Of a DNA stretch of 64,000 nt, positions 53,316-56,674 are shown piece after piece. Location: the NCBI GenBank assembly GCA_020619395.1, contig GCA_020619395.1_4860.1. One strand, written 5' to 3'. The notes beneath the pieces are model-generated. The model searched no databases. It was not told the DNA's origin and saw nothing but the letters and a program-made list of their open reading frames with translations. The number at the start of each line of letters is the position of its first letter. Position 1 is the first letter of the stretch. Origin of the DNA: a phage. Made by a program: the position numbers and the translations under genes.

Positions 53316-54137
53316 TCAGCGAAGGACGTCGGTAGTCTTACCGTGAGAGTTAACCACGTAGACTTCGTCGCCTTTATAAAACAGTTCGTACAACGCACCG
53401 GTACTGATCTGGTTATCAGGATCGTATCCAGATTCTTCTTCGATGCACATTGCGCCAATCAGTTCATCGACTGACCGGTCGCCAGGGCGAGCGCCTTTTA
53501 AAACAGTAACAACAGACTCACCGTTAATCCACTGCGACTGCTCCTGGACACCAGTGAACTCGATAGATGGACCAGGCTCTAATTCGACTTGTTGCAGTTC
53601 TTCCTGAGTGTAGACAATGATCGCCATGTCGCTATCAGGAGATGGTTTGTACCAGCCTAATTTCTCTGGGGGAGTACCGAAACCAACGAGTTCGCCGCAG
53701 ATACTATCCATGGCTTCTGGTTCACATAAATTTGTCGCCAGTACCAAGATAGCATTGCCCTTATTATCTAGCACGTAGCTAATAAACTCGCGTGCGTTGC
53801 AGTTAAACACCTCGACCGTTTCCAAATCGGGGATAATAAGGTTGGGGAAAAGCTGCCGCAAATACGTGTGTGCATAAACCTGACTTTTATATAATCTGTG
53901 CGACCAGCTGCAGTAGTCAGACAAATGCATGGTGTTCGGATCAGGCACATCAGGGGCAACGCGTTTTAACCCCGGATTAAGGGCTAACTTTTCATCATCG
54001 ACAACAATGTCGAAGCGCTCGTTCTCGAGCATCTTTAACGCCTCGCGGAATACACGAGACTTACGGTCACCGATACGAACTTTTTCATGTTCGGTAATAA
54101 TGCGGTCACCATCAATTACACGTTTAACTGTAAACAT
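53316..54137 (-). CDS. hypothetical protein
   Basis: 273-aa ORF; last phage-type gene before the island. Confidence 0.55.
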   Translation of the reverse strand: MFTVKRVIDGDRIITEHEKVRIGDRKSRVFREALKMLENERFDIVVDDEKLALNPGLKRVAPDVPDPNTMHLSDYCSWSHRLYKSQVYAHTYLRQLFPNLIIPDLETVEVFNCNAREFISYVLDNKGNAILVLATNLCEPEAMDSICGELVGFGTPPEKLGWYKPSPDSDMAIIVYTQEELQQVELEPGPSIEFTGVQEQSQWINGESVVTVLKGARPGDRSVDELIGAMCIEEESGYDPDNQISTGALYELFYKGDEVYVVNSHGKTTDVLR

Positions 54138-54517
54138 GTTGCTTCCTTCTTACTACTATTGCTGCTTCTATTGGTAGTCCACGACATATCCCTCGTGGGT
54201 GGGTTCGGTGTGTAACCGAATAAGTTTTTCTGTTCCCAGGGCAACGCACCAGGCTTAATTGATTTAGTTGGCAAACCAGGAACAGAAAAGGGGTATACAG
54301 ACTAGGGCGCGAGGTGGCTCTGGATGGATGCGTAAGAAAAACCCAAACGGCCCTGGCCTGTAAGTTGGCCCGAAGTCACCGTGTCGGAGGACAGCCCATG
54401 CAGGTAGGCGGCAATGGACACGGTGACCGCGGAAGTGGTTCGTGTTACCCTTGACCCGTGTGTGGATACGCGTCTTAATTCGAATGCCTTCGGGATAAGG
54501 GTAACACAAATGGGGCG

Positions 54518-54661
54518 AGCAAACGGACGGATTCGAACCGTCGAAATATCCGATTATGAGTCGGGTGTTAATTCCTCTAACTTCGCTGCTCTTGCTTTGA
54601 CCGGACTCGAACCGGCGACCTTCCTCGAAGAGGTTGCTCTACCTACCTGAGCTACAAAGCC
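54518..54661 (-). ncRNA. two tandem degenerate tRNA-like elements
   Basis: Element 1 (about 54518-54595): D-arm GTTA/TAAC, anticodon-like arm CCCGA-CTCATAA-TCGGA (CAU loop), T-arm GACGG-TTCGAAT-CCGTC, acceptor pairing imperfect. Element 2 (54593-54661): acceptor GGCTTTG/CAAAGC, D-arm GCTC/GAGC, T-arm GCCGG-TTCGAGT-CCGGT, but anticodon arm and variable region too short. Confidence 0.3.
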
Positions 54662-55706
54662 ATTGTTCATGGCATCATGATAGTTACACTCAACGTACCA
54701 CACCCCTACTGGTTTCCGTTTCGGGGGACTTAACCAGACACCATACGTCCAAGGTCGACGCTTAGGTGTGTTATCAGTTGCCTGACTGGAAATCTCTTAC
54801 GAGACGTCTACGTTGAACCGGCAAGCCGGCCATGATGTGAAGATGGGGGAACGCCCAGGCTTCCGCCCAGTCGAGTGAGGTACGAATCCTTCACTCCTGT
54901 CATCACTGATGGTGACAGCGCTCCCATTGTAAGGTGCCGGTGCATCCCGGCGTGTGTTAGTGCACTCAGCTCCCTCGGGCTTATCTGCGGCAACACGTTG
55001 CCCGGAGCACCGACATATACCACAGTAACCTCGTAAAGTCACTCTGGTATTGTTCGTTGCATACTACTAAGTTATCACGTAAACGATTTCATCACTTCCA
55101 TAAATAATAATTAACCTAAATTCATTTCTGAATGCGGGTGATGGACTTCTTCTTCTGAGCCTGGCCGCAAGGTCAGGTCTTAGCGCCTCCAAGCACCACC
55201 CGCTATCACGTACATTCGTGGCGTACCGGCCGTATGAGGTACCGCGCCTACGGTGACACACAGTCACCCTAACACTGGGAACTCAATCCCATTCGGTTAT
55301 CAGATTGTGGATTTACAGGCGTAGCGTAGCGGCTTAATGGGCCGGTGCTTGCCTGTCCCCTAGGGACGGTTGTCGTGGAGACGCCAGTCTGTAAGTGGGG
55401 CCCTTGCGGGAAAACCCATCGCCTGTAAACCAAACATGATTGAATACCCAGAACCGGACGTTGGAAATCAACATCCTGATGTACTGGAGTATTTCATGCA
55501 TAAACGTGTCTCGTATCGAATGAGGTTATGACCGGTCAGATACCCAGCATCCTGTACAAGCGACCTGGTGCTTTGTGTACCTGGCTGCTACGGATTTATT
55601 GGTCTACCGTAGGTCTGAGCTGCTACCGGCTCATGCGGGACATCAACCCGCACAATCTGAGTAAGTATCATGGCTCGAATAGGGTTAGTGGGCCGAAGCC
55701 CACTGT

Positions 55707-55961
55707 TTAGCCAGCATTGAACGATTCATGAACGACGGTCCCAGCAGGATAGTGCGTAGTGCCGATAAGAGTAACGGTCAGGGTAAGCCCTTCATCCCAG
55801 CGCTCTTTCGGTAACCAGCGGCAGTCCATCCAATGACCACAGTCGGGAGGAATTGCACACGCAGCTTGCTCCGTAGGAGCCGCCACGATTATGGAATCAA
55901 ATTCATCATACCCGATATCGTCAGTTCGTTCTAGCAAGTACAAATTCATGTTGTTCTCCAA
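55707..55961 (-). CDS. small hypothetical protein carrying one copy of the repeated NLY...VVAA..EQAA module
   Basis: 84-aa ORF with GGAG Shine-Dalgarno upstream; N-terminus MNLYLLERTDDIGYDEFDSIIVAAPTEQAA resembles two segments of 56671..57246. Confidence 0.45.
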   Translation of the reverse strand: MENNMNLYLLERTDDIGYDEFDSIIVAAPTEQAACAIPPDCGHWMDCRWLPKERWDEGLTLTVTLIGTTHYPAGTVVHESFNAG

Positions 55962-56013
55962 CAGTTGACAAATCTGTGTCTTCTGTGTTGAACCTGAATT
56001 CGTTGGCTAAATG

Positions 56014-56089
56014 TGGCGGGGGCACGAGGTTTCGAACCTCGAACCTTCGGTTTTGGAGACCGGTGCGCTACCAATTGCGCCATACCCCC
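56014..56089 (-). tRNA. tRNA-Trp (anticodon CCA)
   Basis: Hand-folded 76-nt cloverleaf: acceptor GGGGGTA/TGCCCCC, U8, D-arm GCGC-AATTGGTA-GCGC, anticodon arm CCGGT-CTCCAAA-ACCGA (U33, CCA, A37), variable AGGTT, T-arm CGAGG-TTCGAAA-CCTCG, discriminator G, encoded CCA. Confidence 0.85.
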
Positions 56090-56182
56090 AGAATTCTTTA
56101 AACGTGTTTATACGGATGCGCTACCCCGTTATCGCAGGCGATTGATGGGGTCAAGCTTGCGTGCTTCTGACTCCCGCATGAT

Positions 56183-56674
56183 TCACCTCCGTAATTCGTA
56201 AGTGCTAATCTCACCACCGGTGTAGATATCGCATTCAGACGCAATCTCAATAGCACGAACCGCACTCGCGCCCATCTTCATCGCACCCAACGCATACTCG
56301 TAACCGCTTCCGGTTGCCAGAGGTGGTGTGGCTTCACTCCACCACAACGTCACGTCGTCTTCACGTTTTCCGCCGACTATCGCTTTTCCTGAGGCCAAAA
56401 GCATCAGGAAAGTAAAATCCATCTTCGCAGGTAACTGCGAGCTTTGTGTTAACCCCTTGTAGCCGGGTCTCAAGCGGACCGTTTCCAGCAGGGCCAACTG
56501 TCCTGTGATGTCACCGCTTACTCCGAACGCCACAATCCGTTCACCAGTAATCCACCACTCCTCGTCAGGAGGACAGACGAATAACTTCTGGGTATTCAGG
56601 TTGCAGATATTCGACCCACGGGTTAACTGGCCGTCAGCAGCTAAGACTTTTCCATCGAACGCTATCGTCGTCAT
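56183..56674 (-). CDS. HslV-like N-terminal-threonine peptidase (proteasome beta-type fold)
   Basis: Start at ATG 56674 (GAGGAAGG Shine-Dalgarno; ATGA overlap with the upstream stop) gives MTTIAFDGKVLAADGQLT... (cf. E. coli HslV [24 protein letters not shown]), plus GSGYEYALGAM (cf. GSGGPYAQAAA) and DIYTGGEISTYEL (cf. DICIYTNHFHTIEEL); recalled from the E. coli sequence. Confidence 0.65.
   Translation of the reverse strand: MTTIAFDGKVLAADGQLTRGSNICNLNTQKLFVCPPDEEWWITGERIVAFGVSGDITGQLALLETVRLRPGYKGLTQSSQLPAKMDFTFLMLLASGKAIVGGKREDDVTLWWSEATPPLATGSGYEYALGAMKMGASAVRAIEIASECDIYTGGEISTYELRR

Follow-up and report, generated by a model that had tools for sequence, protein, structure and literature searches.

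What is encoded by a kilobase of phage DNA over most of which the records of related phages annotate no coding sequence (CDS)? The question was raised by positions 54662-55706 of the window, the 64,000-nucleotide (nt) stretch of phage DNA analysed here, which an initial annotation had read as one hairpin-dense, structured RNA without a credible open reading frame (ORF). By its pattern of conservation the flagged stretch is a mosaic of several objects, of which only 55130-55657, about half of the kilobase, is a large conserved element (the core element); the 470 nt to its left contain smaller RNA modules along with a variable spacer. The proposal of a long structured RNA was upheld for the core element, where the fold shows abundant compensatory changes, and failed for the kilobase as a single object. 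All element boundaries were set by conservation alone. Features of the window lie on the minus strand unless stated otherwise.

Related loci were compared by alignment and profile searches. By BLAST against four annotated relatives, 54932-56099 was collinear with SPAsTU and pEa_SNUABM_29 at 74-78% identity, mostly without annotation there; 54844-54930 recurred in the same two phages, and the block 54667-54923 was missing from SPN3US itself. With 54925-55710 as blastn query, the segment 55130-55367 was found at 70-79% identity in ~25 Erwinia jumbo phages. Whole unannotated gaps of 15 phages were then aligned, and a ~530-nt block (55130-55657, 528 nt) aligned end to end. An nhmmer profile recovered this core element at full length (E values 1e-115 to 1e-159) in all related jumbo-phage loci, the carriers being Seoulvirus, Machinavirus, Erskinevirus, Wellingtonvirus and several ~240-kb metagenomic contigs. 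The 28 distinct copies were each full length and, outside Seoulvirus, 53-65% identical to the copy in the window, which holds only one (model R1, 221.8 bits). In every annotated carrier locus inspected the core element headed the array of transfer RNA (tRNA) genes, on their strand. IMG/VR, metagenomes and GTDB genomes were scanned by pattern; after an nhmmer filter only ~240-kb jumbo-phage contigs remained, and none of 27 pattern matches in bacterial genomes proved real. In Pseudomonas phage OBP and Pantoea phage Survivor, the tRNA regions syntenic with this locus gave no match to model R1 in a search with filters off.

Folding was compared with that of shuffled sequences. The segment 54925-55710 gave z scores of -4.6 on the minus strand and -4.8 on the plus strand, with 0/20 shuffles folding as well, and 54662-54930 (minus strand) gave -2.7, in keeping with the dense hairpins of the initial annotation. 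Its estimate of about 60% GC was too high; measured GC was 51.7% over 54662-55706 and 53.8% in the core element, against a window average of 48.8%.

The fold of the core element was derived from a plain MAFFT alignment of 20 copies from about five clades (alignment A1), on which RNAalifold returned 73 pairs, 33 of them compensatory. One long-range helix was added to this structure to give the counted model of 77 pairs, and controls were generated by sliding the 3' partners by 1-3 columns. Standard pairs were formed in 94.1% of cells in the counted model (32-43% in slid controls), 35 pairs were changed on both sides (7-11 in slid controls), and the covariation score was 0.377 (at most 0.072 when slid); the observed values were reached in 0/500 shuffles. 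A separate scan of all A1 column pairs ranked the same helices top. Conserved secondary structure, for which the initial annotation had looked to related phages, is shared by these 20 homologues.

The strand was read from the helices themselves. G-U cells numbered 111 and A-C cells 18, and this excess of G-U over A-C points to an RNA of the minus strand and disfavours both a plus-strand RNA and an element acting at the DNA level; the plus-strand reading implied at first is thereby reversed. A minus-strand reading was also required by the setting, since the flagged stretch lies inside a tRNA/RNA-gene island, and the minus strand holds every credible gene and tRNA that flanks it. By covariation and strand bias, the core element is a conserved, strand-specific, multi-domain folded RNA sequence on the minus strand.

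The core element is laid out as a 5' domain, an embedded ORF, a central domain and a 3' domain. Upstream of the ORF lie H1 (55631-55655), a hairpin of 9 bp whose 7-nt U-turn loop is like that of an anticodon arm (Y-U-NNN-R-U; 6/9 pairs compensatory); H2 (55588-55612), a 7-bp hairpin with the conserved loop ..ACC..UAAGUC (6/7 pairs compensatory, 99.3% of cells paired), which was the top helix of the scan of all column pairs; and H3/H4 (55538-55582), a bipartite helix around the invariant internal loop ACACAAAGCAC (7/10 pairs compensatory, 100% of cells paired). The central domain (55310-55431) is closed by a 12-bp helix, GGUUUACAGGCG/CGCCUGUAAAUC, formed by 55420-55431 with 55310-55321 and coinciding with inverted repeat I10 (10 nt, 100% complementary); the helix pairs in 13 of the 20 sequences, and in the Erskine/Wellington clade only GGUU/AACC is left of it. 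Within this domain are the second half of the ORF, GNRA-capped hairpins and a stop-codon hairpin (55323-55349) that holds TAA in its loop and in which one pair (A1 columns 390/402) switches from G-C to A-U.

The 3' domain (55130-55309) is the most conserved part, at ~180 nt, or ~230 nt counting from the stop-codon hairpin. It contains the invariant hairpin UGGGAUUGAGUUCCCA (55276-55291) and the hairpin ggtgac-acaca-gtcacc, which was found exactly where first reported (55252-55268) and switches from GC to AU in 7 sequences. The 3' closing helix (55191-55207/55130-55148; 7/16 pairs compensatory, 97.5% of cells paired) encloses a further hairpin at 55155-55183. Long invariant single-stranded blocks run through the domain (e.g., AUGGGAUU, GGUGCUUGGAG and AGAAGAAGUCCAUC). 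The strongest nucleotide conservation of the core element falls outside its coding-like part, and ~430 of 530 nt are under structural constraint.

Two candidate tertiary contacts emerged from the alignment, both pseudoknots. In candidate PK1, H1 loop bases 55641-55644 would pair with 55519-55522, just upstream of the ORF start; the partners across clades are GAUG/CAUU, GGUA/UACU, GAUA/UAUC and AAUG/CAUU, with 95% of cells paired. In candidate PK2, the loop 55281-55285 of the invariant hairpin would pair with ORF bases 55441-55445, and one pair (282/459) changes from C-G to U-A (CG in 9, UA in 9). An alternative helix, CAAUCU/GGGAUUG, was rejected, showing no covariation and having one pair broken in half of the sequences. 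The 10-bp complement 55300-55309/55651-55660 (UCAGAUUGUG/CACAAUCUGA, repeat I9) was likewise rejected as a conserved helix, being confined to the SPN3US lineage, where it would allow the outermost 5' bases of the element to pair with the conserved CACAAUCUGA block.

Sequence exchange was seen at one arm of the 3' domain. The variable arm (A1 columns ~500-545, ~55208-55250) occurs as four alternative cassettes that cut across the phylogeny: the cassette GGCGCGGUACCUCAUACGGCCGGUACGCC is carried by the window, pSal-SNUABM-04, Asesino, L019 and L023 and not by the nearer relatives SPAsTU and pEa29, Machina has a cassette in common with the ChrisDB clade, as phiEaH2 has with Wellington. This distribution suggests modular exchange by recombination. 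Separately, L016 (Wellington) and L038 have GAUGGCUCGAGAG...CACGACCUGCAUCC in place of the core GGUGCUUGGAG...AGAAGAAGUCCAUC, which is invariant elsewhere; compensatory changes (GGAGGGGAUG/CAUCCCCUCC) preserve their outer closing helix.

The embedded ORF (55334-55501; 55 amino acids (aa), MHEILQYIRMLISNVRFWVFNHVWFTGDGFSRKGPTYRLASPRQPSLGDRQAPAH) contradicts the first impression that the stretch lacks a credible frame. In all 28 distinct copies it begins with ATG, runs for 55-69 codons and ends at the same invariant TAA, and it is the only open frame common to all copies; unshared open frames of at least 45 codons number one to seven per copy, typically three to six. Substitutions within clades were counted by codon position. 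Over the first ~30 codons they numbered 115/63/191 at positions 1/2/3 (116 synonymous, 136 non-synonymous), and over the second half 89/50/77 (38 synonymous, 129 non-synonymous). On these counts the first ~30 codons carry a protein-coding signature and the second half is shaped by RNA structure, not by protein. That second half (~25 codons) and the invariant stop codon lie within conserved helices of the central domain; indels between clades in this half, as placed by MAFFT, are of 3 or 6 nt and keep the frame. In each clade the ATG is preceded by Shine-Dalgarno-like (SD-like) purines, with the candidate PK1 partner immediately 5' of these.

The peptide was examined by profile and structure prediction. 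Its N-terminal part matched phrog_26199 in four of the five clade representatives scanned; this is a family with no assigned function, built from ORFs annotated at this position in some Erwinia-phage records, and some genome records annotate the embedded ORF as a hypothetical protein. A Pfam scan of the ORF gave no match. An AlphaFold2 model from the single sequence placed a confident helix at residues 2-26, the remainder being of low confidence, without secondary structure and consistent with disorder. The N-terminal helix is amphipathic and basic, and no transmembrane segment was found in the peptide (maximum 19-residue Kyte-Doolittle mean 0.2-1.05; threshold ~1.6). A protein profile search with the embedded ORF returned seven clusters, all from the same phage group as the RNA; a look-up of the records of contigs encoding the ORF gave one 1.1-kb contig, and the window's own peptide was absent. 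The embedded frame is probably translated.

How these parts would work together was considered next to the positions of the tRNAs. The favoured reading, held with somewhat more belief than doubt, is that the core element is an RNA of the tRNA island, a ~530-nt clade-specific fold with an ORF, acting as a folded RNA or ribonucleoprotein (RNP). We infer that it would be transcribed, processed and kept stable, would act in trans, and could be switched by translation. The core RNA would be made from the leftward (minus-strand) transcript of the tRNA island, and trimming by the enzymes that excise the adjacent tRNAs and a tRNA-like cloverleaf (54844-54925, described below) would set its ends. The gap from the core element to the next tRNA is 5 nt in Asesino and ~25 nt in Wellington, a spacing so short that tRNA-processing cleavage would define the ends. 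Once trimmed, the RNA would remain folded and stable, by itself or in a small RNP, and would act in a way comparable to the phage RNAs ROOL and GOLLD. Its first ~30 codons would encode the basic amphipathic helix. A ribosome on the ORF would have to unwind the 12-bp central closing helix, the hairpins that it encloses and candidate PK2, and candidate PK1 adjoins the SD-like purines; because the ribosome must melt the central domain and a candidate contact, translation and the folded state look mutually exclusive. Such exclusion would tie the activity of the RNA to ribosome availability.

Several observations weigh against the favoured reading. The family is narrow (~60 genomes in roughly five sub-clades), and the independent compensatory events are therefore far fewer than the cell counts suggest. 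The coding signature of the ORF is clear in the Wellington-like clade and weak in Seoulvirus itself. The all-against-all scan that yielded the pseudoknot candidates gave similar scores to several probably spurious helices. No promoter was identified upstream of the core element, and the tRNAs downstream of it are set apart, in Seoulvirus and Machinavirus, by a CDS or by an AT-rich linker that may bear a promoter, the direct adjacency suited to co-processing with tRNAs being found only in Asesino and Wellington. Finally, a conserved translated ORF, foreign to ROOL and GOLLD, would fit a structured messenger RNA (mRNA) equally well.

That last point leads to the strongest rival, in which the core element is merely the structured mRNA of a small phrog_26199-family protein and the RNA has no function of its own. 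The 5' domain would then be a leader, in which the H1-loop contact beside the Shine-Dalgarno-like GAG/GGUG controls initiation, and the 3' domain a stabilising or processing 3' untranslated region (UTR). Elaborately folded type I toxin mRNAs such as hok are a precedent for structured mRNAs. Much of the ORF evidence suits this account: a universal, in-frame ORF with a coding-like first half, SD-like purines in every clade with the candidate PK1 partner just upstream, annotation as a hypothetical protein in some records, and a protein profile that recovers the same narrow phage group as the RNA. Against it, the changes in the C-terminal half (38 synonymous, 129 non-synonymous) follow the pattern of RNA and not of protein, and the peptide, being without a transmembrane segment and having an amphipathic, basic helix, is not a hok-type toxin, so that a hok-like type I toxin mRNA was rejected. 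A leader-peptide attenuator was rejected as well: neither an intrinsic terminator nor an antiterminator pair was found on the minus strand over 54100-56200, and the 3' domain is conserved and complex. Because conservation peaks in unpaired 3'-domain blocks, away from the coding-like segment, and because ~430 nt are constrained, far beyond the needs of known leaders and UTRs, the structured mRNA is regarded as a possible but unlikely explanation.

A self-splicing intron, another mobile ribozyme or a fragment of one, which the initial annotation had suggested, is very improbable. The core element is large, rich in hairpins and GNRA loops and has an internal ORF, as many group I introns do, and Chimalliviridae carry group I introns. 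Set against this, neither the window at E <= 10 nor the homologues gave a match to group I, group II or any other ribozyme in Rfam; no gene is split or interrupted, the flanks being intact (a complete 84-aa ORF with stop codon and hairpin on one side, tRNAs or linker on the other); the element occupies the same locus in all genomes, with no empty site in related ones; and the ORF is not an endonuclease.

It is scarcely credible that the stretch is debris of a tRNA array decaying after tRNA loss in Seoulvirus, its hairpins being leftover tRNA arms. The same island holds 6-13 tRNAs in relatives of other genera and one good and two weak ones in the window, and the left part of the flagged stretch does contain tRNA-like pieces and a 257-nt block that is present or absent among relatives. 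The core element, however, stands at full length and collinear beside complete tRNA arrays rather than replacing them, the tRNA model finds nothing in it at E <= 10, its helices covary as one large fold, and the cloverleaf, at 83-95% identity across genera with compensatory pairs, is not decaying; for 55130-55657 the comparative data rule this reading out.

No better are the prospects of conservation at the DNA level (a replication origin, packaging site or protein-binding array), which would suit the many related genome records that begin within 2-4 kb of the locus and the AT-rich segment adjoining the element, but is opposed by the six-to-one ratio of G-U to A-C cells (111 and 18), not expected of a cruciform or protein site, by compensatory changes that keep pairing and not sequence, by the absence of a repeated iteron-like family, and by DnaA-like boxes that occur at background frequency (49 9-mers with at most one mismatch in the 64-kb window), which removes the hint of DnaA sites in the initial annotation.

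The remainder of the flagged stretch was resolved into four further objects. Immediately downstream of the core element is an AT-rich linker (55051-55129), with 27% GC over 55060-55130 and a TATG motif (G near 55060) that is conserved, in alignment A4, in Seoulvirus and ChrisDB-type phages. Late promoters of phiKZ are defined by T(-3)ATG(+1) (PMC7598289), and by analogy a promoter in the linker is plausible. The sole sigma-70-like site found lies at 55132-55104 (minus strand); no promoter model exists for the RNA polymerases of these phages. The linker was rejected as a repeated early-promoter motif, the motif not being repeated in the window.

A downstream RNA module (54935-55050) was recognised by its shared fold: a long hairpin (55017-55050) is followed by a domain closed by UGUCGGUG/CACCGGCA (55008-55015 with 54935-54942). 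The fold is common to Seoulvirus and four Machinavirus genomes (8/28 pairs compensatory), and core element and module together span ~720 nt.

The cloverleaf, an unannotated tRNA-like RNA (54844-54925), starts 9 bases past this module. Its 8-bp acceptor stem leads into CCA; the 'D' arm is a long hairpin, the loop of the 'anticodon' arm contains UUCG, and a GGAA tetraloop caps the 'T' arm. Compensatory pairs back the fold. It was detected neither by ARAGORN nor by the Rfam tRNA model RF00005, and with its noncanonical D and T loops it is, judged by its predicted fold, tRNA-shaped but not a tRNA, and cannot decode. Model R2, built from four cloverleaf copies, scored 111 bits in the window, >100 bits in SPAsTU, pEa29 and Asesino, and ~43 bits in Machina, Huxley and pSal-SNUABM-04; copies outside the window lie at L005 ~1109-1194, L004 2175-2261, L003 2210-2296, L013 14-91 and L008 180-257. 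Three genera carry the cloverleaf. The Asesino copy takes up the room of one tRNA between tRNA-His and tRNA-Ile, and in the Machina and Huxley records an annotated hypothetical CDS spans it. A role as processing signal or as decoy is possible. Cleavage by RNase P at the cloverleaf would define the 3' end of the upstream RNA module. The cloverleaf can be compared with the mascRNA-type tRNA-like structure that ends MALAT1 on its 3' side (PMC13408128). What they share is an acceptor stem with CCA, capped non-decoding loops and a place directly behind a structured RNA module; the cloverleaf differs in its phage context, where a decoy for tRNA-targeting enzymes is equally possible.

The left end of the flagged stretch is a variable spacer with local hairpins (54662-54843), matched in close relatives only (at least 98% identity). 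Spacer and cloverleaf together make up the 257-nt block 54667-54923 without a counterpart in SPN3US. The island is an indel hot spot among near-identical phages: the block is absent in SPN3US, SEGD1, JN03 and others (the SPN3US counterpart is at L002 ~2021-2027), and extra DNA somewhere in the 2-kb island amounts to ~600 nt in Salmonella phage 1252 and ~70 nt in MET_P1_082_240.

The window itself is, from its near-identical relatives, that of an SPN3US-like (Seoulvirus) jumbo phage; ~2 kb around the finding were 99.6% identical to Salmonella phage SPLA1a and 97-98% identical to SPN3US and relatives. Seoulvirus comprises ~240-kb nucleus-forming jumbo phages. Adjoining the core element upstream is an 84-aa ORF (55707-55961, phrog_5444), conserved beside tRNA-Trp or tRNA-Cys across the same phages and more weakly conserved in OBP, Survivor and SA002; the ORF list starts it at TTG (LENNMNLYLL...), and its homologues start at the internal MNLYLLER. 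A hairpin, GUGGGC-UUCG-GCCCAC (55688-55703), is present in the minimum-free-energy fold and conserved in pEa29 and SPAsTU; it lies 4 nt (55704-55707) past the stop codon of this ORF (55708-55710) and precedes the core element by ~30 nt. Farther upstream is tRNA-Trp (56014-56089), the one good tRNA of the window.

On the other side of the flagged stretch are two weak tRNA-like genes, neither called by ARAGORN: 54592-54661 (Rfam tRNA, 40.9 bits) and 54518-54589 (30.6 bits). The first has a 3-nt loop in place of the 7-nt anticodon loop and is entered as 'tRNA-OTHER' in the SPN3US record and as tRNA-Asp in that of Proteus phage 7. Downstream of them, 54140-54517 is a second ORF-poor stretch, ~72% identical to pEa_SNUABM_29, with several shared hairpins, including a ~15-bp stem (54439-54458/54491-54510) whose loop carries the DnaA-like TGTGGATAC; this site is at 54461-54469, and not at 54458-54466 as first given, and the second such site, TGTGGAT, is at 55306-55312. 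Compensatory changes were counted in 25/97 predicted pairs of this stretch (three sequences only). Next follows a 273-aa ORF from the ORF list (53316-54137).

Comparable gaps were noted beside the tRNAs of two phages without the core element. Pseudomonas phage OBP (L187 9882-10922) and Pantoea phage Survivor (L186 9901-10673) have unannotated gaps of 0.8-1.0 kb that are essentially ORF-free and fold strongly (z scores of -7.6 and -5.8, respectively, against mononucleotide shuffles); they show no match to model R1 and are barely alike each other.

Known RNA families were searched by cmscan of 54100-56150 against all 4227 Rfam 15 families at E <= 10. This search, which the initial annotation had recommended, returned only tRNA and chance matches; no family matched the core element, and no tRNA match fell inside 54662-55706. 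Rfam scans at gathering thresholds of the window and five related loci (three that carry the element; OBP and Survivor, which do not) returned tRNAs only. A YrlA/Y-RNA-like match at 54606-54722 (15.5 bits, E = 9.7), overlapping the tRNA-like gene at 54592-54661, was dismissed as noise. RNase P RNA was not matched at E <= 10; the helix 55148-55150/55191-55197 (AAG-UC-CAUC / GGUG-CUU), with its bulged U(C), may resemble the P4 helix of RNase P RNA (AAAG-U-CC / GG-CUU) with the strand order permuted. A search of the literature on noncoding RNAs and tRNAs of SPN3US, Seoulvirus and Chimalliviridae found no description of the core element, which is apparently an undescribed, clade-specific multi-domain RNA with candidate pseudoknots.

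Transfer-messenger RNA (tmRNA) and dual-function RNAs resemble the core element in having a frame flanked and overlapped by conserved helices, with candidate pseudoknots and, here, the stop codon in a hairpin loop. The two ends of the core element, in contrast to those of tmRNA, form no tRNA-like domain, and its frame has an ATG, SD-like purines and 55-69 codons; neither ARAGORN nor Rfam found a tmRNA in the window. The tRNA cluster of phage T4 encodes two stable non-tRNA RNAs, species 1 and 2 (rnaC/rnaD; ~120-140 nt), which are co-oriented with the tRNAs, are presumably released by the tRNA-processing machinery and have no known function. These too are non-tRNA RNAs within the tRNA cluster of a lytic phage, in tRNA orientation, whereas the core element is four times larger, has an ORF and shows no homology to them in Rfam.

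Very few large RNAs of intricate fold are known from bacteria and phages, the main ones being ribosomal RNA, RNase P, tmRNA, group I and II introns, OLE, HEARO, ROOL and GOLLD. To our knowledge each of them is catalytic, architecturally remarkable or still puzzling, and a conserved translated ORF is not known from ROOL or GOLLD. For annotation, ~60 jumbo-phage genomes leave the locus blank or cover it with spurious ORFs, and the conserved tRNA-shaped RNA is missed with it. The hosts of related phages include E. coli and Erwinia; SPN3US infects Salmonella, and an amber-mutant genetic system has been established for it (PMC5105663). An unrelated RNA of the ROOL/GOLLD size class in the same niche of this tractable phage could make the pairing of big RNAs with tRNAs experimentally accessible.

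ROOL (~580 nt) and GOLLD (>800 nt) are large pseudoknotted RNAs of phages and prophages, often found near tRNA islands and of unknown function (PMC12286853, PMC5737381), and both assemble into RNA nanocages (PMC12286853). By size, ornate fold and position beside phage tRNAs, they are the nearest analogues of the core element. The differences are plain: the core element matches neither covariance model at E <= 10; ROOL and GOLLD belong to Firmicutes, rumen and lake lineages and the core element to jumbo phages of Enterobacterales, where it is confined to one group of ~240-kb phages; and its ORF is kept in 28/28 copies with a coding-like N-terminal half. An embedded conserved frame would be new for the class of large ornate RNAs and suggests a direct link between fold and ribosome traffic. 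In its boldest form, which is doubtful, the comparison would make the core element a third independent family of ornate phage RNAs beside tRNA islands and the first with an obligatory translated frame, a ribosome-switched, compact and possibly oligomeric RNA or RNP of nucleus-forming jumbo phages acting on tRNAs or ribosomes; core RNA, capped cloverleaf and anticodon-less tRNA-like genes would then form a phage 'RNA toolkit' that manipulates or protects the translation apparatus. What the core element has in common with ROOL and GOLLD is its size class, a multi-domain fold with candidate pseudoknots, many conserved unpaired nucleotides, and a place in phage genomes near a tRNA island, in its own case on the tRNA strand.

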